A program made the translations under genes and the position numbers. Below, in pieces: positions 716 to 23,526 of a stretch of DNA of 64,000 bases. The notes beneath the pieces are model-generated. The model saw only the letters and a list, made by a program, of their open reading frames with translations. It made no database searches and was not told the DNA's origin. The first letter of the stretch is position 1. Each line of letters begins with the position of its first letter. Source of the DNA: an uncultured Flavobacteriaceae bacterium (GTDB lineage Bacteria > Bacteroidota > Bacteroidia > Flavobacteriales > Flavobacteriaceae); contig CANNCA010000004.1 in the NCBI GenBank assembly GCA_947503005.1, forward strand, positions 144,324 to 208,323, given 5' to 3'.

Positions 716-744
716 TGGTTAACCAGATTGGTTTGTTAAATTTA
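716..744 (-). promoter_or_regulatory. Putative operator (TGGTTAACCA-gat-TGGTTTGTTA) plus weak -7-like box TAAATTTA, upstream of the GntR gene
   Basis: The perfect palindrome TGGTTAACCA lies at 716-725 and a degenerate second box at 729-738. TAAATTTA lies at 737-744. The site is 30 bp upstream of the GntR ATG and has the same layout as the sites at 10088, 14307 and 19120. Confidence 0.6.
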
Positions 745-828
745 TGAAAATAACTTCTATCAAAAAATATGTTCCTTACGTAGTTCAACCTAAAAAAAAC
801 ACTATTCAACAAATACTAAGGTTGAGTG

Positions 829-860
829 GTTTTACTGGTCTCGCAAAAGACCAGTAAAAC
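829..860 (-). terminator. Perfect 13-bp stem hairpin downstream of the last PL7 gene (probable operon terminator)
   Basis: gttttactggtct (829-841), loop cgcaaa, agaccagtaaaac (848-860). The arms are exact reverse complements. It lies about 75 nt after the stop of the 934..1923 gene. There is no strong U-tract on the minus strand. Confidence 0.6.
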
Positions 861-933
861 AATGTTGAACTAACTCAAACAACCATAAAGTATACCAAGA
901 GGAAACTAACAACCTTTGGTTTACTCTAAATCT

Positions 934-1923
934 TTAATGGGTGACTTCTAGATAATAATAATTGACTATCGCTGATGAGCCTTCATCATTAGTTTGAAGG
1001 TAGTTACCTGCTTTAAAGTAATTCTCGAACACTCCCCATTTTTGCATGTTTATATCATTATAAATTTTTGATTCATTATCATTTAATACCACTTCTAATT
1101 TACCATCTGAAACTATTACCTCTAATGAAAACTTATTGTCACCTACTTCTTCATTGAATATAAAGCCATCGTCATCCTCCCAAGCATCAGTACTTAAAAT
1201 GTCGTCTCCAGATGTGTTCAAGTCCTTTAACTTTTTAGTCAGTATCCTGACTTTTCCTTTCTGCCAATAGATTTTCAGAATGGGAGGAGCGTTGTTATCA
1301 TTTTCTCCGATACGATCTCTTTGTTCATTTGTTAACCTACCGTGAATTTGCATCACAATGGTACGGTGGAATTCATTATTCGAGTCTTTTGAAATAAAAG
1401 GAACCGACAAGGTACCCTTCATTATACCTCCTTCGGCAAATGTCCAATTAGTGGAATTACTACCCGAGTCCATTTGTTCCCTTAACTCAGTTCTTGAGTA
1501 GGACGAATTAGTCGTTGTGGCCCCTGGATAACTATTAAACACCAGCGCGCCATTAATTGAATCATTGTACATGAAAGGTTTTAATATTTCATTGTTAGCA
1601 TAGTCCAGTATTTCTGGAGGCTCAACTTCAATTGGTTTTCCATTTTCCGATATGGGTAGGGTCACCTTCCAATTATTTAAATCAATCTCCGGTAGGACGT
1701 ATGAAATTTCTTCTTCTACTTCCTCCACTTCTTCTTCCTGTTCTTCCTCCTCCTCAACAGGGTCATCCGTATCAACTTGTTCCTCAGGAATTTCCTCCAC
1801 AATTATATCTTCCTTATCGTTACTACAAGAACATAATATCATTAAAAATATGAATACAAAACCTAGCTTCATATATTGAATCATCATATCTCTTCTTGCA
1901 AATTTCTTCATAGTCAAATTCAT
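934..1923 (-). CDS. PL7-family alginate lyase, lipoprotein with acidic linker
   Basis: 329 aa. It has a lipoprotein-type signal (LMILCSCSND) and a D/E-rich linker (DTDDPVEEEEEQEEEVEEVEEE). The PL7 signature blocks are present: YSRTELREQ, MQIHGRL and YFKAGNYLQ. Confidence 0.85.
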   Translation of the reverse strand: MNLTMKKFARRDMMIQYMKLGFVFIFLMILCSCSNDKEDIIVEEIPEEQVDTDDPVEEEEEQEEEVEEVEEEISYVLPEIDLNNWKVTLPISENGKPIEVEPPEILDYANNEILKPFMYNDSINGALVFNSYPGATTTNSSYSRTELREQMDSGSNSTNWTFAEGGIMKGTLSVPFISKDSNNEFHRTIVMQIHGRLTNEQRDRIGENDNNAPPILKIYWQKGKVRILTKKLKDLNTSGDDILSTDAWEDDDGFIFNEEVGDNKFSLEVIVSDGKLEVVLNDNESKIYNDINMQKWGVFENYFKAGNYLQTNDEGSSAIVNYYYLEVTH

Positions 1924-1932
1924 TCGATACCA

Positions 1933-2844
1933 TTAATGTTCTACATTGAGCTCGTAGAGTTTTACTCTAGCAAAAGCTCCCTCATCCCTTGATTGCAAAT
2001 AATTTCCCACCTTAAAGTAGTTTTCAAAAATTCCCCATCTTTTAATACTTGCGTCATCATACACAAAAAATTCACTATTGTTCAGTGACACCACCATTTT
2101 ACCATTAGTTACCTTTACTCCTAGGGTAAATTTTCTAAAGCCTACCTCTTGCTCAAAGTTTTTTCCTTCATCATCGGTCCATGCTTCTTTATGTAGAATT
2201 CCGACTTGATCGACTCCTGCATATTTTAAAACTTTGGTTTTTACACGAATTTTACCATTCTGCCAATAGATTTTTAAAACTGGCGGTGCATTGTTATCTA
2301 TTTGCCCGATACGTTCCCGTTGTTCATTAGTCAAACGACCATGTATTTGAGCTATAATCACCTTATGGTATTTTCCATCATTGGCCCTTGACACTTCACC
2401 CATTGCCATTTTAGCTCTCAATGTGCCACCTTGCTTAAAAGTCCAATTCACATTATCTTTACCAGGCTCCATTTGCTCTCTAAGCTCTGACCTGGAATAC
2501 TTCGTATTTGCGGTGGTAGCCGACGTTGGATAAGCATAAAAAACTAGCGTCCCACTAGTTGAATCATTGTACATGTAAGGTTTCAAGGTCTCATCTGTAG
2601 CGTAATTCAAAATTTCTGGCGGTTCAATACTTATTGCTCCACCTTTTCCTTCACCCGCTGGTATTGTAACCTTCCAATTACTCAAATCAATTTTAGGAAG
2701 TTTTATCCTCTTTCTTTTCTTTTTGATTTTGTCAATTCTAACCTCCGACTCTGCAACGCTACTTTTCTTATCTTGAGAAGTAGCGTTAACAGAAAGAAAC
2801 ATTAGTACCATAATGACTAATAGTTCTTTTTGGAGTTTTTTCAT
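1933..2844 (-). CDS. PL7-family alginate lyase (tandem paralog of 934..1923)
   Basis: 303 aa. It has a signal peptide and a K-rich linker (KIKKKRKRIKLPK). PL7 blocks YSRSELREQ, AQIHGRL and YFKVGNYLQ are present. It aligns with its neighbour along the whole catalytic domain. Confidence 0.85.
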   Translation of the reverse strand: MKKLQKELLVIMVLMFLSVNATSQDKKSSVAESEVRIDKIKKKRKRIKLPKIDLSNWKVTIPAGEGKGGAISIEPPEILNYATDETLKPYMYNDSTSGTLVFYAYPTSATTANTKYSRSELREQMEPGKDNVNWTFKQGGTLRAKMAMGEVSRANDGKYHKVIIAQIHGRLTNEQRERIGQIDNNAPPVLKIYWQNGKIRVKTKVLKYAGVDQVGILHKEAWTDDEGKNFEQEVGFRKFTLGVKVTNGKMVVSLNNSEFFVYDDASIKRWGIFENYFKVGNYLQSRDEGAFARVKLYELNVEH

Positions 2845-2855
2845 TAAAATCGAAA

Positions 2856-4286
2856 TTATTGAGCAATTACCTTCACATTATCAATATAGGCATCTTTAGG
2901 AGTGACTGCATAAAACATTACAGCAACTTCACCACTGCTAGGAGCGGTAAATTGTATTTGAACCAAGGTGCCAAAATCATTATCTGTATCTGAAAATTTA
3001 CCTTCAGCAACAAAGCCTTCATCGAATCCTAAATTATTACCTAGATTATCAACAGCATCGGCCCCATCATCATAATGCTGGTCCAAGATTAAGCCCACGA
3101 CTCTTCTTCCCCCAATAGGGTCTGTTCCACTATCATCTTTAATTGCATATTGATATTCTAGAACATAATTAGCGCCTGGAGTTAGAATAAGTTCTTGATA
3201 GGCATATCTAGAACTGGATGATCTAAATTCTCCTCCGGATTGACTTGCAGACCATTTAGCCCCTCTAGTTTTTCCGCCGGTGTCATTTCCATCAATGTCG
3301 AAATCAGAACCATCTGAACTTGAACCGAACGGGTTGGTTTCCCCATCTGTAAATGTTGCCCATTTCCAGAAATCTTGACCATCTTCAAAATCACCATTAA
3401 TAATAGTAGAGCCAGTCATTCTAGACATGTAAATATTATCTACTGTTATCGTTGCATGATCCTTTGCAGTTCCACTAGTTGCTAATCCAAATACGATTTC
3501 ATCGAACATAACCACCGGTGATGAGAAATCTGTAGCTAAGTTTAAATCGAAACCAGTCCATTCACCATCCGTTAAGTCCAAATTGTCAATAACGTAGTTC
3601 ACAGCATTCGCACTATCAACTAAAGTAATTTTCAATTTATCTATACCTTCAGCAAAATTAGAATGCACATCAAAGTGAATTTCAGAGGCTTCTACTCCGC
3701 TATAAAAAGCATCCGCAACGACAACTTCGTCACTCAATTTTACGAGCCCGGTATTACTATGGAGTCGAGAAAATTCAAGTAGCTCGTTGCCAGAATCTAA
3801 TGTAACTAATGTACCTCCAGTTCCTGCTGAACCAACTGCAGAACTAGCACCAGTAAAAATATTAAACAAATTATTTCTCTTTCCTTCAGGTGATGAAGGA
3901 GCAAATGAGATAGATTGCACAGCATGTTCTACCGTAATATCTTCAGTTTTGGTGACACCGCCAGCAGTCACGGTTATTGTATAATCAGTAGAAGCAACAA
4001 CGTTAGAATAATCGTGAGAAACGGTCTCGCCCTGTGCTGCGGTTACAGTACTACTGCCATCACCAAAATCTACTGTAAAGGTTTCAACACCAACCGTAAT
4101 CGGTTGGATTGTGACAATTGTACCGTCTCCACTGGTTTCCGTGGAAAAACTCGAAAAAACAGGAGATGTAACACTATTAAGACCCGATGAAACTTCAGGG
4201 GCTATGGGCGTAAACTCTTGTTCCTCGCATGATATTATAAGTCCCATCACCAACAGGGCGCTCATTGATTTTTTTAATAAATTCAT
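2856..4286 (-). CDS. PKD-domain surface lipoprotein with a C-terminal CBM-like beta-sandwich (candidate surface glycan-binding protein)
   Basis: 476 aa. It has a lipoprotein signal (LIISCEEQ) and a PKD-like repeat (TFTVDFGDGSS...SHDYS...YTITVTAGG). The C-terminal module opens with IINGDFEDGQDFWKW, typical of CBM4/9/22-type modules. It lies downstream of susD. Confidence 0.65.
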   Translation of the reverse strand: MNLLKKSMSALLVMGLIISCEEQEFTPIAPEVSSGLNSVTSPVFSSFSTETSGDGTIVTIQPITVGVETFTVDFGDGSSTVTAAQGETVSHDYSNVVASTDYTITVTAGGVTKTEDITVEHAVQSISFAPSSPEGKRNNLFNIFTGASSAVGSAGTGGTLVTLDSGNELLEFSRLHSNTGLVKLSDEVVVADAFYSGVEASEIHFDVHSNFAEGIDKLKITLVDSANAVNYVIDNLDLTDGEWTGFDLNLATDFSSPVVMFDEIVFGLATSGTAKDHATITVDNIYMSRMTGSTIINGDFEDGQDFWKWATFTDGETNPFGSSSDGSDFDIDGNDTGGKTRGAKWSASQSGGEFRSSSSRYAYQELILTPGANYVLEYQYAIKDDSGTDPIGGRRVVGLILDQHYDDGADAVDNLGNNLGFDEGFVAEGKFSDTDNDFGTLVQIQFTAPSSGEVAVMFYAVTPKDAYIDNVKVIAQ

Positions 4287-4374
4287 AATCTTATTTTATT
4301 TGTTTTTTTGTTTTTCCCATGTAAGTATGTTCAAGAACGTACTTATCTGAGACCAATTAGAATAGGAATTATGC

Positions 4375-5187
4375 CTAATCAATTCTCTCTATACTAATTT
4401 TAGAAATTCTAACTTCAGTATCCCCATATTCAATATTGAATCTCATATTTTCAGTATCAGCTCCAGTCGAAAAACTAACGGAATATTCCACGTAAGCGGA
4501 AGACTGATCTGTCCTGGGAATATCCTGACTCAGAAAGTCTTCGCCAGTATCGCCATCTTCAATTAAAAGTTGTCCAGCAGAAACCCCTGAAGAAGGGGCA
4601 CTTACGTACCAAAAGGTTATTCTATAATCTGCACCTGCCACAACTCTTATCGTTTGATCAAGAAATTGAGAAGAGCTACTAATCTTAGCACCTCCATTTC
4701 CTTCTGGTGGTGTTGGAGATCCACTACCAGAATAAGTACTGGTACCTCTACCACCGCCCCATGGCGTTCTTGGGTCGCATAAAAAGTCAGGGCATTGAAA
4801 AGCTGCAACTAACTCATCAACAACCACAACATCTAAGGTGATTGTGGATGTTTCACCATTGGCATCAGATGCAATCAAGGTGACAGGATAAGTCCCTTCA
4901 CCAGGAAATTCTATGTCCTGTGGATCTCTTTCGGTTGAGGTTACTCCCCCTCCAAAATCCCAGGAATAGGTATTTGCCTCCGTAGAGAGGTCAGTAAAAT
5001 TGATAATATAAAAAAACTCTTGATCTGCAGTATAATCAAAATTTGCTTCCGGAAATACGGTATCTTCTTTAGAACCTGTATCCGGCAAATCATCTCTAAA
5101 AAGATCGGAACCGACACAACTGGCAGCAAAAACAGCTGTCACGAGTACCAAGGTTATTTTACGGAAAAATTTCGCTTTATTTTTCAT
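4375..5187 (-). CDS. PKD-domain lipoprotein
   Basis: 270 aa. It has a lipoprotein signal (VFAASCVGSD) and a PKD motif (YSWDFGGG...GTYPVTLIASDANGE). It lies directly after susD, as in other flavobacterial alginate PULs. Confidence 0.65.
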   Translation of the reverse strand: MKNKAKFFRKITLVLVTAVFAASCVGSDLFRDDLPDTGSKEDTVFPEANFDYTADQEFFYIINFTDLSTEANTYSWDFGGGVTSTERDPQDIEFPGEGTYPVTLIASDANGETSTITLDVVVVDELVAAFQCPDFLCDPRTPWGGGRGTSTYSGSGSPTPPEGNGGAKISSSSQFLDQTIRVVAGADYRITFWYVSAPSSGVSAGQLLIEDGDTGEDFLSQDIPRTDQSSAYVEYSVSFSTGADTENMRFNIEYGDTEVRISKISIERID

Positions 5188-5205
5188 AGTTTGAATTTTT
5201 GAATA

Positions 5206-6675
5206 TTAATATCCTGGATTTTGGGTTAAAAGACCTCCGCTAAGATTGATTTCACTAGCAGGTATTGGCAATAACAATTTTCTAGAGTCATAGGCGTAGC
5301 CCAAATCAGCCGAAAATGCACTTAAAACAGACTCCGCTACACCAAATCTAACTAAATCAAAAAACCGTTGATTTTCAAAAGCTAACTCTACTCTTCTTTC
5401 CAACAAAAGCTCGTCTTGCGTTATAGAAGACACAGGTGCTGTTAAGCCTGCCCTATCTCTTACTGCTTGAAAAGAAGCTAAAGCAGCTGCATCACTTGTA
5501 GATCCCGCCCCTGCCATAATGGCTTCTACATGGAGTAATAAAACATCAGCATAGCGTAAGGCAATATAATCGTTACCAGCGTCACGACCCGCTCCGTAAG
5601 TTGGAGGTACTGCAGTGATATCTGATCCTTCGGGTAAAAATTTCGTTACTTCATTGGAAAGACCAAAGGTAGCATACGAAACTGCCGTTCTATCACCACC
5701 AGCGGCTGCAAAATCAGCGATTAGATTATCTTCGAGAATGTTTTGACCGTCTTCTGAACCTGTACGATTAGAAGCAGGAGAAGTAAATTCAGCAGAAAAA
5801 CCTTGACTTTCCAACTGATTACCAGAAATATATTGAACTGCAAATATTACCTCACTATTTGCTGATGCGTCATACTCTTCATCAGTTCCCGAATAAAATA
5901 CATCATTAAAATCAGGCTCTAATGCGTAATCTCCACTATTGATTATGTCTTCACACAACTGACGTGCACCATTGTAGTTCGGATTATCTTGAGTAAGATA
6001 GACCTTTGCCAAAATACCTTGGGCAGCTGCCTTAGAAGCTCTTACTACATTTGAATTATCTAAAACACTAATAGCTTCCTGTAAATCTGCAATAATCTGA
6101 GCATAAATCTCGGCCTCGGGTGTTCGTGTAAAAGCAGTCTCCTTATCATCTGGAGATACTACTTCAGTTACCAAAGGCACATCACTATATAGTCGAACTA
6201 GTTTGAAATATGCATATGCTCTTAAAAATTTAGCTTCTGCAGTATACCTTGCTTGATTACTATCATCAGCAATTTCAATGAAGTTCAAAATGTTATTAGC
6301 TCTAAAAATTACTTCGTACATGGATGCATAGTAATCTTGAGACTCTACATTGTTAGCATTCACCAAGTATCTGTGGAAATCTGCTTTTGAACCTTCGGTA
6401 GTACCATTTCTTGTATTATCACTTCTATGTTCTGTTAAAAGGTGCTCAAATTGAACTCCTCTATTCGTAGTAGCTTCATTTGAGTTTGTAGCATCATTTA
6501 CACCCTGGACAGCATCATAAACTCCCATCAGTCCAGAAAATACATCTGCATCCGTTTGAAAGAACGCATCTACGGTAACAACAGAGTCCGGTACAGGGTT
6601 TAAATACTCTTCAGTATCACAGGAAATCAAAACTGACCCTGTAATAACAAAAATTAAATATTTTATATGTTTCAT
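5206..6675 (-). CDS. susD: SusD/RagB-family outer-membrane glycan-binding lipoprotein
   Basis: 489 aa. It has a lipoprotein signal (SVLISCDTE) and a SusD-like helical sequence. It lies 20 nt downstream of the susC-like gene. Confidence 0.85.
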   Translation of the reverse strand: MKHIKYLIFVITGSVLISCDTEEYLNPVPDSVVTVDAFFQTDADVFSGLMGVYDAVQGVNDATNSNEATTNRGVQFEHLLTEHRSDNTRNGTTEGSKADFHRYLVNANNVESQDYYASMYEVIFRANNILNFIEIADDSNQARYTAEAKFLRAYAYFKLVRLYSDVPLVTEVVSPDDKETAFTRTPEAEIYAQIIADLQEAISVLDNSNVVRASKAAAQGILAKVYLTQDNPNYNGARQLCEDIINSGDYALEPDFNDVFYSGTDEEYDASANSEVIFAVQYISGNQLESQGFSAEFTSPASNRTGSEDGQNILEDNLIADFAAAGGDRTAVSYATFGLSNEVTKFLPEGSDITAVPPTYGAGRDAGNDYIALRYADVLLLHVEAIMAGAGSTSDAAALASFQAVRDRAGLTAPVSSITQDELLLERRVELAFENQRFFDLVRFGVAESVLSAFSADLGYAYDSRKLLLPIPASEINLSGGLLTQNPGY

Positions 6676-6695
6676 AATCGTTTTCTTTTTTAAAA

Positions 6696-9600
6696 TTAAA
6701 AGTCAATATTCATACCAATTGTAAACGTTCTAAATATTGGCGTACCTGCTCTCTGTGAACCAAAGGCTCGTACATTGCCGTTATCATCGTGCTCCGGGTT
6801 GAAACCATGATAATCATCAGCAGTTATATACACAAGGTTTTGAGCAGTAGCATATAGTCTTAACCCGTCTAAACCTATACGTGATGTTAAATCGTTTGAA
6901 AAATTATATCCAAGATTTACATTACGTAAAGAAAAATAGTCAGAACTAGCAATAACATCGCTCGTTACTACCTTTCGTTGGATAAAAGACACATCGGGTA
7001 CCAAACCAGCCGCGACAGCTTCTTCGGCACCTGTTCCTCTGGTCGTATTTCCGAACCAATTGAAGAAATATTCATCACCTATATTATTTACCTGACCACC
7101 GAGGCTTCCTTGGACCATGAAAGAGAGGTCAAAGTTTCCATATTGAAATTCATTGGTAAAACTGTAGATCAAATCAGGATAAGGATCCCCTAAAATGGTT
7201 TTGTCTTCATCTGTAATTAAACCATCGCCATTTAAATCTTTTACAATAGTTGCTCTAGATTCCCCGTTTATCCTGTTCCATGGTCTATCAACATAGGTTG
7301 TTCTAAATGAAGTTTCATCAAAAAGCTCTTCATCTACCACAAAACCCCAAAAAGATGAGATAGGCTCGCCGACCCTATTGATCCATAATGAATTTCTACC
7401 ATAAGTATCAGCTATCAAAGCATTATCTGAATCGGCAAAATCCAACAATTCGTTTTGGTTGGTAGATGCGATTAACGTAGAATTCCATCTAAAGTTCTCA
7501 TTTGCAATGTTTTTGGTGCGTAACTCAAATTCAAAACCTTTATTTTGAACTTCCCCTAAATTTACAATTCCCTGATCAAAACCAGTAACGTAAGAAACAG
7601 GGTTAGAAAGCAATAATTCATCACTAGTTCTCTTGTAATAATCAATGGAACCCGATATTCTATTACTGGCAAATCCGTAATCCAAACCTATAGTTAATTC
7701 TCTTGAAGATTCCCATTGCAAGCTAGGGTTTGCAATATTAAGCGGAGAAACACCTTGTGCGGTGCCATAGTTTGTATTTTGACTTAATGCTAGGTAAGGC
7801 CATGCATTTTCAACAATAGTACCCACATTAAAATTTTCAGTACCCGTAAAACCATAACTAGCTCTAAACTTAAGGTTACTAACGATATCACTATCTACCA
7901 AGAAATTTTCTTTAGCCACATTCCAACCCACGGATGCGGCAGGGAAGTTACCCCACTTAGTATCTGTACCAAATACAGAACTGCCGTCACGTCTAAAGGA
8001 AGCATTCACCAAATACCTATCCTTATAGGCATAATTTACACGAGCAAAATAACCTAGTTTTCTTTGGTCCGAATTAATTTCCGATACAATGGTATTTGCA
8101 GGATCAGCACCATTCATGTTTTTAAGACGATCATCAGTAAATCCACTACCATTGATTTGACTGATTTCAGTTCTTCTTTTCTGAATCGTTACACCACCCA
8201 ATAAATTCAGATCATGGTCCCCGAAATTTTTGGTATAATTTAAAGTATTATCATTAATTATTCTTGTACGGTATCTATTCTGCAAACCATACGCAGATCG
8301 GCTTGCACCGGATGCGTGGTGCTTGGTTCCATCCCATCTTGTTTGCTTTCTTTGATCAATAGTGACACCAACAGATGTTTTGGCCGTAAGACCATCTAGT
8401 ATTTCATAACTTAAATACGTTGATCCAAATAATTTTGTATTGATATCATAATGCTCTCGCTCAACATATTGTGCGTAGGGATTTGAATCGCCCGAGGTAC
8501 GAGGTCTGCTAGAACTTCCATCGCCATTGAGATCTAAGTTCACCAGATGATCTTCACGGAAGTAATCGCCCACACCAATATCTGGATAGTTTGCTCTATT
8601 AATAAACTGAAGTGATTCTTCAGTATGATAAATAGGTAACCAAGGGGATTGACGAGTAGGGTTATGAATAGATGTTGGCAAACGTCGCTGCTTGGTATAA
8701 GAAGGGGTTGCGCTAATACCAAACCTTAATTTATCACCAATTTTTGAATCTACCTTGACGTTTCCAGTGTATAATTTGAAATCATCAGTAATTACCACCC
8801 CTTCATCATGAAGATATCTCAAAGAAGAACTGAACTTCGTGTCCTCTGTTCCACCTCTTGCGGAAAGTGAGTGACTTGAAACAAAGCCTCCATCAAAGAA
8901 AACATCTTGCCAATCACGGTCAACTCCCGTAGTATTTCTTAATAGATCAATATACTGTGACTCTTCAGAAAGTGTGCCCGTGACTGATCGCTCTAAAGCA
9001 AACCACTCATCAGTATTTTTTTTGTAGTCTTCACTACCATGCGCCTGCTTGTACCCAGTATACGTTTGGTAACTGAATTTTGTTTTACCTGCCTTACCAC
9101 TCTTTGTCGTAATCAGTATAACACCATTTGCACCTTCACTACCGTAAATAGCTGCAGATGCAGCATCTTTTAATACTTCAAAAGACTCCACATCATTCAT
9201 GTCAATATTTCCAAGAAATTCAGAGCTCATAACTATACCATCAACAACTAGTGCAGGTCCTGAATCAGCAGCAACTGATCCAACACCTCTTATTGTGATA
9301 GTTGGAGCTCCCCCGGCTTCAGCGTTGGTAGCTTGTATGTTTACACCCGATACTTGACCAATAAGTGCATCATCAACTCTTGACACCGCTATTTGGTCTA
9401 AGGACTCATTGGTCACTTTGGATATAGAACCTGTAATAGTAGATTTTTTCTGAGTTCCATAACCTACCACAACCACCTCATCAAGTTGGCTAGCGTCTTC
9501 TACCAGGACAATATTTAGGGTAGTCTGCCCATTTACAGCAACTTCCTGTGTAGAGTAGCCTAGATAGCTTATTACTAAAGTAGCGGAAGCATCCACATTG

Positions 9601-9785: not shown

Positions 9786-9975
9786 AAATTTAAATTTTAG
9801 TTAAAATAGTTAGATAATTTGCTTTTTAACATTTAACAGGTCGCATGCATGCTAAATGGAATTTACCGAAGATCCGTATTCTAAAAATTCAATTGTTTAT
9901 CGTAATTTTAAAGAATATGATATCAATGGTATCGTATAAGTATTACTTCCCTTCAAAATGAAGTAATTGATTTTT

Positions 9976-10007: not shown

Positions 10008-10061
10008 AGGCAAGATTTTTATTTTTCCATATAGTTCGTTAGTTCTTTGAGTGATTGAAAT

Positions 10062-10116
10062 TGGTTTTCCATTTTGGTTTTCCATACTGGTTAACCAATT
10101 TGGTTTACCAAATATA
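10062..10116 (-). promoter_or_regulatory. susC promoter: -7 box TATATTTG fused to four 13-bp-phased TGGTTnnCCA boxes
   Basis: Boxes: TGGTTTTCCA 10062-10071, TGGTTTTCCA 10075-10084, TGGTTAACCA 10088-10097, TGGTTTACCA 10101-10110. CAAATATA at 10109-10116 equals TATATTTG on the minus strand and matches the Bacteroidota TAnnTTTG -7 consensus. Confidence 0.65.
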
Positions 10117-10229: not shown

Positions 10230-10982
10230 CTATGAAAAAACAAGTCCCCCGTTGATATCAACGTTCGCACCTGTCATAAAAGATGTTTCGGAAGAAGCCA
10301 AACAAGCGACAGTATTCGCGATTTCTTCTGCTGTGCCTTGTCTACGAAGTGGCGTCATACCTTCTACTTTTTTGCGAACTTCATCTTTGGTAAAATCATC
10401 ATGAAATTTGGTAGCTATCATTCCTGGACACAAAGAATTTACCCGAATACCTTTCGGTCCCACTTCTTTTGCTAAACCTCTGGTAAAGGTCATTACTGCG
10501 CCTTTTGAAGTTGCGTATGCCAAAGACCCGCCACCACCGCCATCTCTACCCGCTTGGGAGGCAATGTTCACTATTGAACCCCCGGACCCCATATGTGGCA
10601 AAGCCGCCTTGGATACCAAAAATGTAGAGTTCAAGTTTAAGAACATAACCTTATTGAAGAAAGACTCATCCATTTCCGCGATTGTTTTCCTAGCCACTAA
10701 ACCTCCTGCATTGTTGACTACAATATCAATAGTGTCACCGAAAGCTGCTGTTGTTTCTTTAATCAAATTGTCAACATCCGATTTTTTGGTCATATCGCCT
10801 TTGACAATAATGGCAGTTCCACCTGTAGCTTCTATTTCTTTCAAGGTTTCTTTGGCATTTTCTTCGTTGTGAAAGTAATTGGCAACTACTTTTGCACCTT
10901 CCTTTGCCAATCTCGCACTTATCGCCCTTCCTATATCTCTTGTTCCACCAGTTACAATGGCCACTTTTCCTTTCAAATCCAT
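10230..10982 (-). CDS. SDR-family oxidoreductase (candidate DEH / 2-keto-3-deoxy sugar-acid reductase)
   Basis: 250 aa. It has a Rossmann motif (VAIVTGGTRDIGRAI), NNAG, and the catalytic YATSKGA. It lies in the alginate locus next to kdgF. Confidence 0.8.
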   Translation of the reverse strand: MDLKGKVAIVTGGTRDIGRAISARLAKEGAKVVANYFHNEENAKETLKEIEATGGTAIIVKGDMTKKSDVDNLIKETTAAFGDTIDIVVNNAGGLVARKTIAEMDESFFNKVMFLNLNSTFLVSKAALPHMGSGGSIVNIASQAGRDGGGGGSLAYATSKGAVMTFTRGLAKEVGPKGIRVNSLCPGMIATKFHDDFTKDEVRKKVEGMTPLRRQGTAEEIANTVACLASSETSFMTGANVDINGGLVFS

Positions 10983-11017
10983 AGATGTTGTTTTTAATTA
11001 ATTCATTATCGTCTTAA

Positions 11018-11782
11018 CTAAATATTGTATACGCCACCATTGATATCTAACGTTGCGCCAGTAATAAAGCCGTCATACTCTGATGCCAGATATAGGACCG
11101 CTCGAGCTACGTCATCTGCATTTCCGGCTCTTTGAATTGGAATGCCTGCAATTGTATTTTCTGCAGATTCTTGGGTTGTATGGGTGTTGTGGAATGAAGT
11201 GCCAAGAATTAGTCCGGGGGCCACGGCATTCACCCTTGTGCCTTGTGGACCCAACTCGGAAGCAAGTGCTCTTGTAAATGTTAAGATTGCTCCTTTACTG
11301 GTAGAATATACTAATGATCCAGGGTGACCCCCTTTACGTCCAGCAAGAGATGCCAAATTAACAATACTGCTATTGTCATTTTTTGCTAGATAAGGAGCTG
11401 CCGCTCGCGTCACGAACATCATGGAGGTAAGGTTGATGTCCATTACTCTGTGCCAGAATTCAGCCTCCATTTCGTTCAGCATTTTACGTGCAACAAGTGA
11501 ACCTGCATTGTTGATGAGTGTGTCTAAACCACCGAAAGCTTCTACTGCTTTTTCAACCAATGCGTTTGCATCAGCTTCTTTTGTTAAATCACCACCTATA
11601 GCAATCGCCTTTTGTCCCTTTCTAATTGCGTATTCCGTCAATTGGTCCGCCGTCTCGACGCTGGAAAAATAGTGGATGGCTACATTGGCTCCGCTATCAA
11701 TAAAGTGTTTGGTTATTGCTTCGCCAATGCCTTGCGCGCCTGCGGTGATGAGTACATTTTTTCCGGTCAGTTTACTTTTCAT
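11018..11782 (-). CDS. SDR-family oxidoreductase (second copy, divergent paralog)
   Basis: 254 aa. Motifs present: VLITAGAQGIGEAI, NNAG and YSTSKGA. Confidence 0.8.
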   Translation of the reverse strand: MKSKLTGKNVLITAGAQGIGEAITKHFIDSGANVAIHYFSSVETADQLTEYAIRKGQKAIAIGGDLTKEADANALVEKAVEAFGGLDTLINNAGSLVARKMLNEMEAEFWHRVMDINLTSMMFVTRAAAPYLAKNDNSSIVNLASLAGRKGGHPGSLVYSTSKGAILTFTRALASELGPQGTRVNAVAPGLILGTSFHNTHTTQESAENTIAGIPIQRAGNADDVARAVLYLASEYDGFITGATLDINGGVYNI

Positions 11783-11804
11783 CCCTTAGTTTTATTACCT
11801 TTCT

Positions 11805-12182
11805 TTAAGACTCTTTATCTCCAAAATAAGACACCCCGCCACCTGTTAAGAAATCTTCTCTTACAGGGCTAAAGGTGTCGATTAGTATTCCCTCTTCTAA
11901 GCAAACTGCACTGTGCAATAAATTAGGTTCAATATAGACCCCATCTCCTGCTTCTACGATTTTCTTTTCTCCATCAATTTCAAATTCAAATTTGCCCGAA
12001 ACACAATAAGTAGCTTGGGTATGAAAATGCTGATGTGGAGAACCTAATGCTCCTGTTTCGAATTTCACTTTTACCATCATAATTTGGTTATCGTAACCTA
12101 AGAATTTTCTTGATACCCCTCCACCGAGTTCTTCCCATTCCAGTTCTTTTGAGATGATGTACTTCTCACTAAATCGATTCAT
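11805..12182 (-). CDS. kdgF: Cupin-family KdgF-like protein (unsaturated uronate linearisation)
   Basis: 125 aa single cupin with metal-binding His motif (GSPHQHFHTQATYCVSGKFEF ... EPNLLHS). Its size and its position between lyases and SDRs are typical of kdgF in alginate and pectin loci. Confidence 0.75.
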   Translation of the reverse strand: MNRFSEKYIISKELEWEELGGGVSRKFLGYDNQIMMVKVKFETGALGSPHQHFHTQATYCVSGKFEFEIDGEKKIVEAGDGVYIEPNLLHSAVCLEEGILIDTFSPVREDFLTGGGVSYFGDKES

Positions 12183-12230
12183 TTTTTTATAATTTTAATA
12201 TTTTTTACTCTTTTCAAATAACCAAGTCAT

Positions 12231-14282
12231 TTACTTGGATGGTGTACCGGGGCCTACCGTTGCTTCTCTAAACCATACTTCGGCATAACTACCATTTTCA
12301 TATTGTTTGGCAATATCACCACCGTATGTTTCTGCGCCGGTACTCCATACCATATTAGTTTCAGGACTTTTACCATTGGTTTGGTTATAAACGCCTTGCT
12401 TGAAATAATTCAGTTCTCCACTGTAGGCCGTGGCTCGTTCTGTCCCATCTTGTCCTATGGGCACAAATAATCTCCTTGTTTGTTCCGGGAGGTCTGACTT
12501 ATTTACGTATTCGGATGCGATGAGATTTTTAGTAAATGTTTTTGTTTCATGCTTGTCACTTTTGAAGGTGAGATACATGATGCCTTTATATACATTTATT
12601 TCATAGCTGAATTCTTCACCCAGTTCTATTCCGTCCTTAGGCTCGGCCGGATAGTCATTTTTACCTGAACCTACAACAGACAGATCATACCCCCATACGG
12701 GGGTAGAAAAATCCCATCTGCCAGCATTGTCATCTCCTGCTGTATTGATTTCATAGTTCCAAAAGACAGAGCCTTTCGTGTGACCAGGAAACTTCTTGTA
12801 AAATATTTTCAGCGGTTCATTTTCATGTCCTTCACCGCTATGTATTTGCCCGATTACGGTTGAGTAAGAGGCAGCAACCCTCGCATCACCGGAAACAGAG
12901 ACTTGCATAACCTTGCAGGTACCTGTTAGTTTGCCACCTTCTTCAGGCGTCCATTCTCTTTTTTCGTGCAACTCCGTTCTGGTATTGCTGGAATTTTTTG
13001 AAGTGACACCAGAATTTGGTGTTTTATAGACCACCCAACGTCTGGTACCATCAATCACGGTGTAGAAAAAATCCTTGTGTTCAAACTCAGTGATATCTTC
13101 TACTGTAGTTCCATCGCCCAACAATATTTTAAATTTATCCATAAAAGGAATCACTTCGTTTGGATAGACTGTTTTTGTACTCATGCCATCGTTGGCCTCG
13201 AAATATCCGGCATTGGAGATGGCATCATCACTAATGGTAATATTTGCTGATTTAAACCAGACCTCCGCGTAATTTCCATCGGCGTATTGTTTTTGAAGAT
13301 CACCCCCATGGGTTTCGGCACCAGAACACCAGACTTTATTTACTTTAGGGTCTTTACCGTTTGTTTGGTTGTACGTTCCCAATTTGAAAAAGAGCCCCTC
13401 GCCAGTATACGCTTCGGTTCGCTCGAGGCCGTCCTGACCAATGGGGACGAATAGTTTGTTGACTTGTTCTGGTATGTCCGAACGATTCACATATTCAGAG
13501 GAAATAAGATTTTTAGTAAATGTTTTGGTTTCATGGCCTTCACTCGAGAATGTTAGATGCATCATACCCTTCTTAATCTCGACTTCATAACTGAATTCTT
13601 CACCTAGAGCAATTCCATCTTCCGGTTCTGGGGGATAGGTGTTTTCATTCGTGCCGACAACAGAAAAGTCGTAACCCCATATGGGATAGGAATAATCCCA
13701 TCTTTTTGAATTATCAACACCTGCGGTATTGATTTCATAGTGCCAAAAGACAGACCCTTTTTCATGACCAGGGAATTTTTTATAGAATATTTTGAGTGGT
13801 TCGTTCTCATGCCCATCCGCACTGTGAATCTGCCCCACCACTACCGAATATGTAGAAGCAACCCGAGCATCGCCCGTAGTTGACACATTCATTACTTTAA
13901 GGGTGGCATTCATTTTGGCATCGGTCATTGGCGACCATTTTTTTAACTGGGCCAATTCGGTTCTTGTATTGTTCGAAGTACCATGGGTATTTCCCGCATT
14001 TGGGGTTTTAAATACGACCCAATCGCCATTGTCGTCACTTTCCGTATAAAAGAAATCTTTGTGTTCATAATCAGTAGCCAGACCTACGTTGGAGCCATCG
14101 CCCAAGATTAAATTCCAATGTTGAAAAAATGGTATGATGCTGTGTGGATTACTTCCTTGTGCCATTTCATCACTTTTTGTGTCGCTTTCCTTTTTCGTTT
14201 TGTCCGCACAATTCATGAACAACAGGACACCTAGCATTAATGGATAAGGGAAAAAATTCGATTTAAATATTTTGAAGCTCAT
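12231..14282 (-). CDS. Two-domain (internally duplicated) PL7-superfamily beta-jelly-roll lyase, lipoprotein
   Basis: 683 aa with lipobox LLFMNCADK. It has two roughly 310-aa repeats. Each carries NNTRTEL, GQIHS..GHENEPLKIFYKKFPGH, and FFKLGTYNQ or YFKQGVYNQ, which follows the PL7-like R-x-E-L / QIH / YFKxGxYxQ pattern. The exact CAZy family is not certain. Confidence 0.7.
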   Translation of the reverse strand: MSFKIFKSNFFPYPLMLGVLLFMNCADKTKKESDTKSDEMAQGSNPHSIIPFFQHWNLILGDGSNVGLATDYEHKDFFYTESDDNGDWVVFKTPNAGNTHGTSNNTRTELAQLKKWSPMTDAKMNATLKVMNVSTTGDARVASTYSVVVGQIHSADGHENEPLKIFYKKFPGHEKGSVFWHYEINTAGVDNSKRWDYSYPIWGYDFSVVGTNENTYPPEPEDGIALGEEFSYEVEIKKGMMHLTFSSEGHETKTFTKNLISSEYVNRSDIPEQVNKLFVPIGQDGLERTEAYTGEGLFFKLGTYNQTNGKDPKVNKVWCSGAETHGGDLQKQYADGNYAEVWFKSANITISDDAISNAGYFEANDGMSTKTVYPNEVIPFMDKFKILLGDGTTVEDITEFEHKDFFYTVIDGTRRWVVYKTPNSGVTSKNSSNTRTELHEKREWTPEEGGKLTGTCKVMQVSVSGDARVAASYSTVIGQIHSGEGHENEPLKIFYKKFPGHTKGSVFWNYEINTAGDDNAGRWDFSTPVWGYDLSVVGSGKNDYPAEPKDGIELGEEFSYEINVYKGIMYLTFKSDKHETKTFTKNLIASEYVNKSDLPEQTRRLFVPIGQDGTERATAYSGELNYFKQGVYNQTNGKSPETNMVWSTGAETYGGDIAKQYENGSYAEVWFREATVGPGTPSK

Positions 14283-14306
14283 GTGAAATGATATGTGTTG
14301 TTAAAT

Positions 14307-14335
14307 TGGTTAACCAGTTTGGTTTACCAAAAATA
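14307..14335 (-). promoter_or_regulatory. Promoter/operator: -7 box TATTTTTG fused to TGGTAAACCA-N3-TGGTTAACCA
   Basis: TGGTTAACCA lies at 14307-14316 and TGGTTTACCA at 14320-14329. CAAAAATA at 14328-14335 equals TATTTTTG on the minus strand. The site is 24 bp upstream of the ATG at 14282. Confidence 0.65.
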
Positions 14336-14502
14336 CATTTATTTGTTAGACTACCAAATATTTAACAGAAAATCGGTTTGGCCGAGCAATAAAAAATTGT
14401 CTTTAATTGAACTAAAAACATAATAAATTGAAAAAGGTCTTATCTGAAATTTTTAAGGAAAATACACATAGAAGATAAACAGTGAATTACTACTTTTAAG
14501 AG

Positions 14503-16740
14503 CTATTCGTTGCGTATTAAATTCCAGACCTCTCCCGGCTTGAGTTCCTTTTCTGTCTTCTTTCCTTTAACATCTGTAATGGTCATAATGCTTTTCTCCG
14601 TTCCAAGCGCATGAATTTGAATTTTGTTGACGCAATGTTTTATGAAAAGATCCGTCTCCAAAGAAAGTTGAATGCTCAGTTCTTCAATTTTTAGGTTCTT
14701 TACGTCAAAGAAGTAAAAGCGATTATCCTTACTGATGCTTATTGAATTGTTACCAGCAGTTTCTCGGGCCGTATTATTTACATTCCATCCATAATAAGAG
14801 AATTCATCATCTGTTTCATCAATTCTATTGTCGTATCCCCGATAGGGGTAAATAAGTGTTATGAAACTAAAATTCTTTTGATTGATTTTTGAAACGATAC
14901 TCCAATTTTTCCCTCTTGCCCCTGAATTAACCACCGTATCTAATTTTGTTAACTGTAGAATATCATGACCACTCGCGTCTGGAGCCGTTGCTCGAATAAG
15001 ATAAGGGCCATTTTCATTGGTATAATGGCCCTGCCACACTTGTTTGTATTCATGTGGAGCTTCTGACGAGAAGTTATCTTTCACGATCCAAAAGTCATCC
15101 TTTACGAATATGACCTGTCTTGTATAGCTTACACCTACATTCTCAAATCCATCATGACTACCTATGAATAAATCAAAGTCTTCATTGGTTGACCATGCAA
15201 TGACTTCTGGGTTCGGCAAACTACCAAACTTGCCAAAACCACTTCCTCCTTTATTAGACGTCCATTGTTTACCTTGTAGCTCATCGTCAACTAGGGCGAC
15301 ATTTTTGACCTTTGAGTTTTTGAACAGTTCGAAATCCTTTAGCGAATAGCGTACTTGATAATTTGGTAAAATCACATGTCCATTTGCAATGGCCTGAACC
15401 CCTAGCATATCGCCATGTTGATGGTCAGGTTTCTCGTCGTCGAGGCCAGCGCTTACAATCATCATTTTGCTGTCAGGGTTCCAACCTTCACGCATTATAT
15501 AATAATGCGTGTCAGTAAAAGCGAGAGAGCCGTAAGAAGGTTTTATTCGTTGAATATTTTCAAGTAATTCAACCTGTGACTGATTTAGAAACCAGTACAT
15601 TCTTTCATCCACCTTGTCAGAAGCGAAATAGCCGAATTCAGGATCTTCAAAAAGTACATAACCCAAAGTCATCGCTCCGGAAATGTCATTTTTTTCTGCC
15701 CATGGTATTTCCGTATCATCTTGAAGTACGGGAGCGCTTTTATCAGGATAAGCAATTTTCACAAGCGTGGAGAACAGACCTTTAAGTTTGGTCGTCCAAT
15801 CATCGGCTAGCGGAATATGATTGACTTTGGCCAGTTGGTACACATAGTAGTAGTTATTTATGTCGCTCATGTGATAATGAACGGAACGTTCAAATTGAAA
15901 ACCGTCTTCATTGATTTCTTTATTTAAATGCTCATCAAGCCGCTGTATCGCCCTATTATACCACAAGTCAGTTCCTTCAAAATCACGAAAAAGAATGGAA
16001 AGCATCGCCAAGGCAGACATTCCTCTGGTCTGATGGTTACCAGGTTGAAACTTATCATTCCTATCATAAAGATGTTGGCCATGTTGTAAAAGCGTAGCTA
16101 TGGTTGTAAGCTGATCCTGATCGGAATATTCGGGCTCATTGAGAATCATGTTATGGATCCACAACCAATTAAGAATCCTGTAGCCCGACCTAAAAACCTC
16201 ATAAACCCCGTTACCATCTTCTATTCTTTCATATTGGCCGGATTCTAGCGCAGCATTAAGCGAACGGATCTGGTTTTCGAAATAGCTGATGTATTTTGGG
16301 TCTCTTTCCTCATTGAAATAAAGTAAAATAATATCTACCATCTTATGTTGCCTTGCCAAATGGCGCAGGGCATAGGCATTCACTTTTTGACCATTGAGAT
16401 AATTAAATGGCAAGATCCATTGTGTGGAATCAGTGTATTTTCCCAAATGATCCAAAGCTCTTTTTTTATGGACTTTCTCATTCTGATAGAGACCTTTGTA
16501 ATGTGGGAGTCTTTGGTCTAAGGTGTTATAATCATAGAAGAAGCGTTCAGAAAATCTTTCCCTGAAATATTTTGCCAGTTGTGCATCGGTTAGTTCCCCG
16601 TTTACTTCAATTTGCTCTATTACTTCATTTTTCAGAAAAGCTCCTAATTCATCATTTGTCAAAACTTTATTCGCGGGGATTTGCTGAGCAAAAAGACCAA
16701 GTGAAACGACTGAAACTAGATAGAAAACGTAAACTTTCAT
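14503..16740 (-). CDS. Heparinase II/III-like polysaccharide lyase (probably a PL17-type oligoalginate lyase; PL15-like not excluded)
   Basis: 745 aa with a signal peptide. It has an (alpha/alpha)-toroid-like N-half with an N-H pair (QPGNHQTRGMSA) and ERSVHYHM, then a beta-rich C-half. Its size and its position between PL6 and PL7 genes match flavobacterial alginate PULs. Confidence 0.6.
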   Translation of the reverse strand: MKVYVFYLVSVVSLGLFAQQIPANKVLTNDELGAFLKNEVIEQIEVNGELTDAQLAKYFRERFSERFFYDYNTLDQRLPHYKGLYQNEKVHKKRALDHLGKYTDSTQWILPFNYLNGQKVNAYALRHLARQHKMVDIILLYFNEERDPKYISYFENQIRSLNAALESGQYERIEDGNGVYEVFRSGYRILNWLWIHNMILNEPEYSDQDQLTTIATLLQHGQHLYDRNDKFQPGNHQTRGMSALAMLSILFRDFEGTDLWYNRAIQRLDEHLNKEINEDGFQFERSVHYHMSDINNYYYVYQLAKVNHIPLADDWTTKLKGLFSTLVKIAYPDKSAPVLQDDTEIPWAEKNDISGAMTLGYVLFEDPEFGYFASDKVDERMYWFLNQSQVELLENIQRIKPSYGSLAFTDTHYYIMREGWNPDSKMMIVSAGLDDEKPDHQHGDMLGVQAIANGHVILPNYQVRYSLKDFELFKNSKVKNVALVDDELQGKQWTSNKGGSGFGKFGSLPNPEVIAWSTNEDFDLFIGSHDGFENVGVSYTRQVIFVKDDFWIVKDNFSSEAPHEYKQVWQGHYTNENGPYLIRATAPDASGHDILQLTKLDTVVNSGARGKNWSIVSKINQKNFSFITLIYPYRGYDNRIDETDDEFSYYGWNVNNTARETAGNNSISISKDNRFYFFDVKNLKIEELSIQLSLETDLFIKHCVNKIQIHALGTEKSIMTITDVKGKKTEKELKPGEVWNLIRNE

Positions 16741-16751
16741 TTCGATTTAAG

Positions 16752-19070
16752 TTAGTACATCAGTTTCAACGGAAGATTTTCTTGAACGACCAAATCTCCT
16801 GAATTTTTCAATGCATTATCGGCATGCGAATTGTTTTTTGCCCCCCACAAACGAGCCACCATTTTTACACGATTGTTTGCAAAAGTGTTGCCGGAAATAT
16901 CAACATTGATAATACCATAGGTATTGAGTAAAATACCGTTTTCTTCCCTAGCACCACAATTGGTAAACGTACTGTTGGTTACGATGAGATTTCCACCGAC
17001 CGTAGATTCGTCGTAACCACCTCTATAGTAGTTAATGGTATTCTTTTCAACGCCATCAAATCGACAGTTGTCGATAAATACATTTTCCGCATTGTAATCA
17101 CCGCGGTCATCATCTTCTGCGGCCAATTCAATTCCGTTTGCGCAGTTTTGAATGCGCGTAGACTTGAATTTGACATATTCCGAAAAAGAGTGTTTATACC
17201 CTTTCAACACATAGTCAAAGTTTGATATTTCAGAATTATTGACTTCTAAATTGTAAAGACTTGACATGTGCTCTTTCAAGCTGGCGAAGGCGTAATTTTC
17301 TCCGTTTCCTTCAAGTGCCAGCGATATCAAACTAAGCTCGCCCTTTGGATTCATTTCAAACGCAGGCGTTTTGGCCTCACCACTAAACGTAATGAGAGCT
17401 TTCTTTCCGTCAACAGCAGAACGTATGCTAAGTTTTTTATTAATCCTAAGTGATGATTTCAAGTCATATCGGTCGCTTGTCAAGCGTATCGTATCACCAC
17501 TGTTAGCTTCCTCAACTACCTTACGCAATTCACTTACGGAAGCTGCTGAATGCGTTTTTGCCTCGTTTTTCGTTTCACTGAAATCGTACCAATCCGGACC
17601 GTATTGTGACAGGTCCATAAGGTTTGGCTTATCGCCTTTGACACCTGAGATAGCTCCGACCTTATTATTATTCTCTCGTGAATTACCGAATAAATCTTCT
17701 GTAATCTGGTCAAACTCAAAACCGTTGTAGAGAGCAACATCCGGCAGGTCATTGGTTGGGATAAAAATGTCTTCCTCAAGTTTAGCAATTGAGAAATCCT
17801 CTTGCTTAAAGACGGAATCATGTTTGAACGAGACGCCTTGATTGTTTATCAAATTACTTTTAAACGAAATGCCATCCAATGAATCATGGGCTACAATGGG
17901 ATGCTTATCCGCCTTCACGTTGTAAATAAGATTGTTCGCAACAATAGTACGGATAGGTCTTTCAGATCGGATTTCTGAAGCAGGCAACACATCCTTTTGG
18001 TCTACGTTTGATCCCACTCCAAATTGCAAGGGGGAAGTACAATTGACCCAAAAGTTATGCGCCACTACAACATCTGTAACTTGTATATATCGATTGAGCG
18101 GCGATTTGGGAATACCGTTCATTACGGCAAGCGGACTTCTAAAAACCTTTCCTTTTAGGTTATAGAAATAGTTGTTTGTTACCCAATGACCTGTACCTAT
18201 CAACCGTACACCCCCAATTTGTTCTGAATTTGTATCTCCGATGAAATAATTCCCATCTACGATACAATAGTTTCCGTGTCTTGTTACTAAGGAACCCTCG
18301 CTCTTGTAAAAGACATTATTTCGAAACTCATTGAAATTCGTTTTGCTTGAAATAACTTCTACTTCCCCATTACATCGATCAAAAAAATTATTTGCCACTA
18401 GGGTGTAGCTGGGCGCCATTGAAGTAAAACTATTCCCGATTTGGATGGTCTCGGCACTAGGTCCTCCTTTGGGAGGCCTCGACCCAAAATAGTTATTCGT
18501 AATCTTATGGTAATTTTTGATGCTTTTATTTCCGGCTAGGTCAACCCGAATGGTGGGACCTCTATTTGATTTACCCGCTATGTAACATTGATTAAGCTCG
18601 TTATAGCGCCCTTTAAACTGTATCCATAAATCAGTCTCGTTTCTTTGTGGCTTGTTGTAGTCTAGAATTACACTGTTGGTGACCTTGGAATGGTTGGCGA
18701 CCGTATCTTGATTAATAGCAAACTCGATTACAGCTCGCGTAGGAGATGCCCCATCCGTAAAGTATAACCCGTTAACTACCAGGTATTCACCTCCAAGTTT
18801 TATATCGGATTTTCCTTTTATAATTACCTTGCCAGGAGTTTCCGCACGTAAGGTAATGGGTTGATTTTCATTTCCATACCCGACAAATCGAATTTGTACG
18901 TCATTCCAATCTCCATTGGCCATGACGATATCATCTCCAGGACTTGCTTTCTCTATCGCTTCGGATAATTCAGTGCTATCTTTTACATAGATTTCATTTG
19001 AAATGGAATTTTCAGCACAAGAAAATAGCAGGAGCACTATGCAGACTAATAATAGATGTTTTTTTATCAT
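16752..19070 (-). CDS. PL6-family alginate lyase (two-domain, right-handed beta-helix)
   Basis: 772 aa with a lipoprotein-like signal (LLFSCAEN). PL6-type blocks are present: SPGDDIVMANGDWNDVQIRF, AETIQIGNS, and NFFDRCNGEVEVISSKTNFNEFRNNVFYKSEGSLVTRHGNYCIVDGNYFIG. A second beta-helix-like C-terminal half follows. Confidence 0.8.
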   Translation of the reverse strand: MIKKHLLLVCIVLLLFSCAENSISNEIYVKDSTELSEAIEKASPGDDIVMANGDWNDVQIRFVGYGNENQPITLRAETPGKVIIKGKSDIKLGGEYLVVNGLYFTDGASPTRAVIEFAINQDTVANHSKVTNSVILDYNKPQRNETDLWIQFKGRYNELNQCYIAGKSNRGPTIRVDLAGNKSIKNYHKITNNYFGSRPPKGGPSAETIQIGNSFTSMAPSYTLVANNFFDRCNGEVEVISSKTNFNEFRNNVFYKSEGSLVTRHGNYCIVDGNYFIGDTNSEQIGGVRLIGTGHWVTNNYFYNLKGKVFRSPLAVMNGIPKSPLNRYIQVTDVVVAHNFWVNCTSPLQFGVGSNVDQKDVLPASEIRSERPIRTIVANNLIYNVKADKHPIVAHDSLDGISFKSNLINNQGVSFKHDSVFKQEDFSIAKLEEDIFIPTNDLPDVALYNGFEFDQITEDLFGNSRENNNKVGAISGVKGDKPNLMDLSQYGPDWYDFSETKNEAKTHSAASVSELRKVVEEANSGDTIRLTSDRYDLKSSLRINKKLSIRSAVDGKKALITFSGEAKTPAFEMNPKGELSLISLALEGNGENYAFASLKEHMSSLYNLEVNNSEISNFDYVLKGYKHSFSEYVKFKSTRIQNCANGIELAAEDDDRGDYNAENVFIDNCRFDGVEKNTINYYRGGYDESTVGGNLIVTNSTFTNCGAREENGILLNTYGIINVDISGNTFANNRVKMVARLWGAKNNSHADNALKNSGDLVVQENLPLKLMY

Positions 19071-19119
19071 TTTGTTTTTTATAGCGAAATAATAGAAACG
19101 GATATTTTATTCAATAAAT

Positions 19120-19158
19120 TGGTTAACCAGTTTGGTTTACCAAAAATACATATATTTG
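19120..19158. promoter_or_regulatory. Divergent promoter region: double-box operator flanked by a minus-strand -7 box (TATTTTTG) and a plus-strand -7 box (TATATTTG)
   Basis: TGGTTAACCA lies at 19120-19129 and TGGTTTACCA at 19133-19142. CAAAAATA at 19141-19148 is the minus-strand -7 box. TATATTTG at 19151-19158 is the plus-strand -7 box. A TTTG at 19131-19134 inside the operator could serve as the plus-strand -33 element. Confidence 0.6.
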
Positions 19159-23514: not shown

Positions 23515-23526
23515 AAACCTTTGTTG

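Follow-up and report, generated by a model that had tools for sequence, protein, structure and literature searches.

The stretch analysed here, 64 kb of DNA from an uncultured Flavobacteriaceae bacterium (hereafter the window), contains an alginate locus in which the promoters of a regulator gene, of susC and of two lyase operons carry the same composite element, a Bacteroidota-type -7 promoter box fused to an array of 10-bp palindromic boxes. These four sites are very probably the operators of an AusR-type repressor of the GntR/FadR subfamily, encoded in the same locus on the minus strand at 1–685. AusR is the GntR/FadR repressor of the alginate system of Zobellia galactanivorans DsijT (Dudek et al. 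2020, NAR 48:7786, PMC7641319), and judged from its sequence the window would represent an orthologous instance, with minor variations, of an operator system that is already known. The leader of the susC gene holds in addition a candidate antisense RNA and a mini open reading frame (mini-ORF), which are considered below.

All four promoter/operator sites are read on the minus strand. Site a, in front of the regulator gene (716–744), consists of a -7-like box, a degraded box and a canonical box; site b, in front of susC (10062–10116), consists of a -7 box and four boxes; and sites c (14307–14335) and d (19120–19148), which precede the double-PL7 operon and the PL6–PL17 operon, respectively, each consist of a -7 box and two boxes. 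The double-box sequences given in a preliminary description of this DNA were found exactly at 716–738, 10088–10110, 14307–14329 and 19120–19142, and the -7 boxes assigned to them were likewise located, namely TAAATTTA at 744–737, TATATTTG at 10116–10109 and TATTTTTG at both 14335–14328 and 19148–19141. The -7 box is followed by boxes at 14329–14320 and 14316–14307 in site c, and by boxes at 19142–19133 and 19129–19120 in site d. Site b had been described as a pair of boxes (10110–10101 and 10097–10088), an account that overlooked two further ones at 10084–10075 and 10071–10062, which in gene orientation are both TGGAAAACCA and stay in the same register. That register, 13 bp from the start of one box to the start of the next, results from 10-bp boxes separated by a 3-bp spacer, and it is found at sites b, c and d as well as at site a, whose partner box is degraded. 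Boxes of the forms TGGTTAACCA and TGGTAAACCA are present across the four sites. The first box had been said to share TTTG with the -7 box, which is correct for the longer palindrome TTTGGTnnACCAAA, whereas the overlap of the 10-bp box itself is TG. The distances to the start codons, 30 bp for site a, 24 bp for site c, 49 bp for site d and 302 bp for site b, agree with the ranges of 24–49 bp and about 300 bp reported before.

Chance does not account for this arrangement. When the window was searched with the 23-mer and up to three mismatches were allowed, the matches were the four sites plus one adjoining degenerate pair, against an expectation of 0.00 in 100 dinucleotide-preserving shuffles of the window, a result that bears out the earlier observation that the remaining 45 kb hold no other full copy. 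Exact copies of TGGTNNACCA numbered eight where 0.72 were expected, seven of them within the four sites, and exact matches to the composite TANNTTTGGTNNACCA were confined to sites b, c and d. The eighth exact box, TGGTTGACCA at 15186–15195, stands isolated inside the PL17 coding region, with neither a partner box nor a -7 box, and probably arose by chance. Each of the three catabolic intergenic regions has a single perfect TAnnTTTG on the minus strand, namely the -7 box fused to the operator. A sigma-70 promoter scan of the window gave 57 matches against 56.4 expected, the model being uninformative for Bacteroidota.

The layout of the four sites is that of the published AusR system. MEME analysis of Z. 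galactanivorans and 12 further flavobacteria gave a motif that holds the TAnnTTTG -7 box together with TKGTN2-3ACMA boxes (PMC7641319), a consensus that is matched by boxes at all four sites. In Zobellia, box pairs with a three-base spacer overlap the -7 box at PalyA3, Ptbdt, PalyA4 and PalyA6, Ptbdt has a third AusR box, and the ausR promoter carries a single canonical box, its partner having lost the palindrome through two G-to-A changes (PMC7641319). Binding of AusR to PausR and PalyA3 in electrophoretic mobility shift assays (EMSA) is cooperative and operator-dependent, unsaturated alginate trisaccharides release the protein, and 69 of the 70 alginolytic polysaccharide utilization loci (PULs) in PULDB have an ausR homologue (PMC7641319). 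The window has in common with that system a FadR-type GntR gene placed in the alginate locus, the TKGTN2-3ACMA boxes with their three-base spacing, the overlap with the -7 box at lyase and susC promoters, extra boxes at susC, and a regulator gene preceded by one canonical and one G-to-A-degraded box. As every sequence-level feature of the AusR layout recurs in the window, the operator finding is a rediscovery of what is already known. The two systems differ in the organism, the regulator of the window being closest to Maribacter (97% amino acid identity), and in the susC promoter, which has four boxes here and three in the published case.

The properties of the regulator fit this assignment. 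Its gene, the last five codons of which lie beyond the window start, sits inside the alginate locus and adjoins the PL7 and susCD genes; the protein, whose relatives are 233 amino acids long, has the Pfam domains GntR (residues 16–77) and FCD (residues 103–223), and its best relative in the PDB is 6AZ6, identical to that reported for AusR. From synteny, domain coordinates and operator layout, we infer that it is orthologous to ZGAL_2617 (AusR). With the FadR-subfamily repressors at large, such as E. coli FadR, PdhR and LldR or B. subtilis LutR, it shares the GntR helix-turn-helix and FCD domains and the TGGT...ACCA half-sites. The closest NCBIfam models are the FadR-subfamily LldR, NanR and PdhR, but all equivalog scores fall far below the cut-off, the ligand class here would be alginate oligosaccharides, and the promoters are of the Bacteroidota -7/-33 type.

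The same association between regulator and motif was found outside the window. A scan with the regulator protein, taking one genome per GTDB species, yielded 79 related loci (L001–L079; 1.42 Mb in total) with regulators 79–97% identical to that of the window and encoded beside alginate loci, in the genera Maribacter, Aquimarina, Arenibacter, Kriegella, Flagellimonas, Tenacibaculum, Polaribacter and others. Maribacter halichondriae has the closest of these regulators (97% amino acid identity), and the best locus is ~84% identical at the nucleotide level. The genes found downstream of the double-box clusters of these loci are susC (58 sites), 674–698-aa double PL7 genes, PL6, PL17, the gene of a lamin-tail-domain protein and the regulator gene itself. 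The predicted enrichment at alginate genes was thus observed across the 79 loci, and within the sequence analysed the motif was not equally common in unrelated intergenic regions. Together with the AusR-matching layout, the GntR and FCD domains and the 6AZ6 relative, this enrichment supports the reading of the motif as a GntR/FadR operator. Regulator and motif occur together in 72 of the 79 loci, which, along with the motif copy that the regulator gene itself possesses and the binding of the orthologous AusR to such sites in EMSA (PMC7641319), speaks against the idea that the boxes are bound by some other transcription factor, encoded for instance outside the window, while the GntR protein has a different target. 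We consider that idea very improbable, even though the window covers 64 kb of the genome and alyA7 is under another mechanism in Zobellia (PMC7641319).

Double-box clusters with at most one mismatch numbered 88 in the related loci, and 87 of these were fused in register to TAnnTTTG, a sequence whose background frequency there is 0.0006 per position; Markov-resampled loci contained no double-box cluster. A similar picture emerged from a metagenome sample of 120 loci picked with the terminator hairpin of the susC leader alone, in which an operator double box was present within 220 nt in 108 of the 113 loci with enough downstream DNA, 107 of the 108 being fused to a -7 box. Many genera share the composite without change, while the part of the leader that follows directly resists alignment, which argues for selection rather than shared ancestry alone. 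So tight a fusion means that position by itself does not tell promoter from operator, and one might propose that the conserved sequence after the -7 box serves RNA polymerase or an alternative sigma factor as a promoter or initial-transcribed element and is not a repressor site. To this proposal we assign an even smaller probability than to binding by another factor, for dyad-symmetric boxes that repeat at 13 bp, up to four times and as far as +43, would not be expected of a polymerase contact, the window contains 61 TAnnTTTG matches with exact fused boxes only at sites b, c and d, and deletion of ausR derepresses these genes in Zobellia (PMC7641319).

We infer the binding, the effector and the transcription start sites (TSSs) in this organism, and on these premises the mechanism would be as follows. 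A dimer of the FadR-family protein would bind each 10-bp TGGTnnACCA box, the first of which overlaps the last two bases of the -7 box TAnnTTTG of the Bacteroidota sigma-A. In Flavobacterium psychrophilum the -7 box occupies -12 to -5 (PMC9723704); by this rule TSSs are predicted at ~732 for the regulator gene, ~10104 for susC, ~14323 for site c and ~19136 for site d, so that the operators would cover -6 to +4 and +8 to +17 and, at susC, additionally +21 to +30 and +34 to +43. With the repressor bound, RNA polymerase would be kept off the -7/+1 region of the PL6–PL17, PL7–KdgF–SDR–SDR and susCD–PL7 promoters, and unsaturated alginate oligosaccharides would release the repressor, by analogy with AusR. 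Several dimers on closely spaced repeats over a promoter, with cooperative and tight repression, are also found with E. coli NanR on its (GGTATA)3 operator (PMC8012715), and the double operators of B. subtilis AraR (cited in PMC7641319) exemplify the same multi-dimer cooperative mode. Repeat sequence and spacing differ in both cases, and the likeness is one of mechanism, not of family membership.

Sites c and d resemble each other well beyond their boxes. The promoters at 14303–14376 (PL7 operon) and 19116–19180 (PL6 operon) are alike over ~65–75 bp, the -33 region included, with TTTG or TTG 19 nt upstream of the -7 box in both, and one stretch of the related locus L001 matches the two of them; from their sequences they look like duplicated promoter cassettes. 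Least probable of all, nevertheless, is that the recurrence of the element as a whole is a by-product of such duplication without regulatory meaning, given that beyond the composite sites a and b have no sequence in common with c and d, that the composite is invariant across many genera whose flanks have diverged, and that the boxes are more conserved than the flanking intergenic sequence. Orthologues of site c precede 674–698-aa PL7-type genes in related loci, and the site d composite is also found in front of PL6 and PL17 genes elsewhere among them.

Several points weigh against the assignment of the four sites to an AusR-type repressor. Being near-duplicate promoter cassettes, sites c and d are not independent samples of the motif. 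The third and fourth boxes of the susC promoter deviate from the consensus, with TGGA for TGGT. All of the best 80 genome matches to the regulator are at least 79% identical, and none of them is from Zobellia. The TSSs of the window are predicted from a rule that was mapped in F. psychrophilum. Lastly, the -7 box of the regulator gene has A where the consensus has G and is fused to the operator as TAnnTTTA, whereas the -7 box of the Zobellia ausR promoter has been placed 125 bases from its operator (PMC7641319).

The regulator promoter itself bears on this last difference. Downstream of its -7-like box, site a holds the degraded box TAACAAACCA at 738–729, which compared with the canonical TGGTAAACCA has lost its palindrome through G-to-A changes, and the canonical box TGGTTAACCA at 725–716. 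A perfect -7 box is absent from the 248 bp upstream of the gene (686–933), where the sole TAnnTTT[G/A] is TAAATTTA, fused to the degraded box. This weak -7 box, which the preliminary description had already proposed, recurs in the related loci, since TAnnTTT[A/G] was found at that register (around position 9950 of L001–L079) in 61 of the 79, as TAnnTTTA in 44 and as TAnnTTTG in 17. In 32 of the 79 loci the degraded box has exactly the sequence TAACAAACCA. As the register and TAACAAACCA recur across related loci, the apparently decayed second box is itself conserved, which suggests that degraded box and TAnnTTTA make up a selected weak, fused promoter rather than a product of random decay. In this lineage, the promoter of the regulator has probably retained the fusion, though to a weaker -7 box. 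One full box and one half-degraded box combined with the weaker TAAATTTA would give leaky, weakly autoregulated expression of the repressor. A perfect 13-bp inverted repeat (829–860; GTTTTACTGGTCT, a 6-nt loop and AGACCAGTAAAAC), with no T-run after it on the minus strand, is situated in the interval that separates the last PL7 gene from the regulator promoter and may be a terminator or an RNA-processing hairpin.

The susC promoter differs from the other three in the length of the leader that it would drive. The predicted 5' leader spans ~319 nt (9786–10104, minus strand), as delimited by the TSS rule and by the conservation of distance, the -7 box being about 250–365 nt from the susC ATG in nearly all of 67 related leaders. 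Since this distance is kept and a second sense-strand TAnnTTTG is absent from 66 of the 67, the long leader appears to be real and conserved; the median 5' untranslated region in F. psychrophilum is 24 nt (PMC9723704). In this promoter, three boxes were counted in 62 of the 67 related leaders and four in 5, the window included. We tentatively propose, while holding it somewhat less probable than its opposite, that in marine Flavobacteriaceae the AusR-controlled susC promoter drives a conserved ~320-nt leader that contains a second, RNA-level control module, absent from the account in the AusR paper and made up of an antisense RNA and the mini-ORF.

The leader holds three conserved elements that, when read on the plus strand, resemble a small-RNA gene. 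The candidate cis-antisense RNA gene (9903–10007, plus strand) begins with a -7-like box, TAATTTTA at 9903–9910, one base off the consensus, and would be transcribed from a TSS predicted at ~9915 into an RNA of ~93 nt (9915–10007), comprising a 5' hairpin (9915–9937), a second hairpin (9942–9967) and a terminator with its stem at 9980–9999 and a T8 run at 10000–10007. In the related loci, the order of elements is a -7 box, a clade-specific 5' hairpin, a nearly invariant hairpin AUUACUUC-N10-GAAGUAAU and a GC-rich hairpin followed by 5–8 T; the -7 box, a perfect match in 46 of 62 loci, lies 70–86 nt upstream of the terminator. Each locus has one copy of the element, always in the susC leader, and conservation extends over some 60 genome loci and the 120 metagenome loci. 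In nearly every case the AusR-type operator array comes next, the strong terminator ending just short of it. Among the metagenome loci, the antisense -7 box was present in 104 of the 117, out of 120, that had enough upstream DNA.

The folding data argue for the antisense strand as the one that carries the structure. Positions 9912–10008 of the window fold into three hairpins (-28.8 kcal/mol, z-score -4.76), and RNAalifold detected one covarying pair, G-C in 36 sequences and A-U in 23, along with many G-U wobbles. Alignment cells with standard pairs on one strand only were 62 for the antisense strand versus 2 for the sense strand, the more stable fold was on the antisense strand in 56 of 61 sequences, and the median T-run after the terminator was 7 on the antisense versus 4 on the sense strand. 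Taken together, the evidence supports a strand-specific RNA structure in the susC leader. The strand-specific cells and the T-runs led us to reject, as the main explanation of the hairpin, a sense-strand attenuator or a terminator of the upstream SDR operon. A small protein encoded on the antisense strand was also considered and set aside; of 61 sequences, 28 have an open reading frame over hairpin 2 in one frame, 15 have it in other frames and 18 lack it, and since its frame varies or it is missing altogether, coding is unlikely to be the conserved feature.

The mini-ORF, which reads ATG GAA AAA TAA (ATGGAAAAATAA; 10030–10019, minus strand), is situated at ~+75 of the predicted leader. Its ATG and in-frame stop are kept in most related loci, at a length of three codons in 27 and six in 13, while the inner codons vary. 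On the sense strand the mini-ORF lies about 12–17 nt upstream of the terminator hairpin, and in most loci its ATG stands 20–30 nt ahead of the hairpin element. Its translation might help sense transcripts to pass the bidirectional hairpin.

Searches against Rfam returned no family at gathering score anywhere in the window, and the sub-threshold matches in the susC leader (e.g. BTnc231, 24 bits versus a cut-off of 80) rest on the terminator and were rejected as evidence of membership. Our literature search found no paper linking an antisense RNA to flavobacterial alginate loci, and the words leader, UTR and hairpin are absent from the AusR paper (PMC7641319). The DonS-type PUL-associated antisense RNAs of Bacteroides (PMC7366714) appear to be the closest known analogy, being short RNA genes of 78–128 nt that run antisense to the start of a susC homologue (its 5' region), the position in which the candidate of about 93 nt is predicted here. 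The two differ in that no sequence or Rfam relationship connects them, the candidate described here is predicted from sequence, its hosts are marine Flavobacteriaceae and its PUL is under a GntR repressor. The antisense RNA could lower the expression of susCD, whether it acts like DonS or through transcriptional interference.

The operons that the three catabolic sites would control all lie on the minus strand. The susC–susD operon (934–9785), assigned from Pfam domains and gene order, encodes SusC (6696–9785), SusD (5206–6675), a PKD/CBM protein (4375–5187), a protein of unknown function (2856–4286) and two PL7 lyases (1933–2844 and 934–1923), in a gene order that is the same in the closest relative, L025. 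The target of site c (10230–14282) is the PL7–KdgF–SDR–SDR operon, with a double-domain PL7 lyase (12231–14282), a KdgF-like cupin (11805–12182) and two SDR reductases (11018–11782 and 10230–10982). The target of site d (14503–19070) consists of a PL6-type lyase gene (16752–19070; Pfam Chondroitinas_B) and a PL17-type lyase gene (14503–16740; Hepar_II_III N- and C-terminal domains), 11 bp apart.

Two further observations concern the surroundings of these operons. A perfect -7 box on the plus strand, TATATTTG at 19151–19158, lies 8 bp from the operator of site d and points at the divergent gene 19218–20183, which encodes a xylose-isomerase-like TIM-barrel protein with an RRDFTK motif near its N-terminus. 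The site d operator would span about -43 to -21 of this divergent promoter, a location from which the repressor might also affect the gene. Positions 22853–27615 of the window are homologous to positions 16236–20153 of L001, genes that in Maribacter halichondriae are downstream of the regulator and that here are on the far side of the alginate locus; their placement on opposite sides points to a rearrangement between the two genomes.

Overall, these data indicate that the published AusR model carries over to a Maribacter-like flavobacterium and holds across at least 79 genome species and ~100 marine metagenome contigs, so that the composite TAnnTTTGGTnnACCAnnnTGGTnnACCA can serve as a reliable marker in the annotation of alginate regulons. 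They also refine the published picture in two respects, as many as four boxes can be present at the susC promoter, and a fused TAnnTTTA box is conserved in the promoter of the regulator. Potentially new is the module of antisense RNA and mini-ORF in the susC leader, which, if true, would add a post-initiation layer of control to alginate uptake by marine flavobacteria, similar to that of the antisense RNAs associated with PULs in gut Bacteroides.

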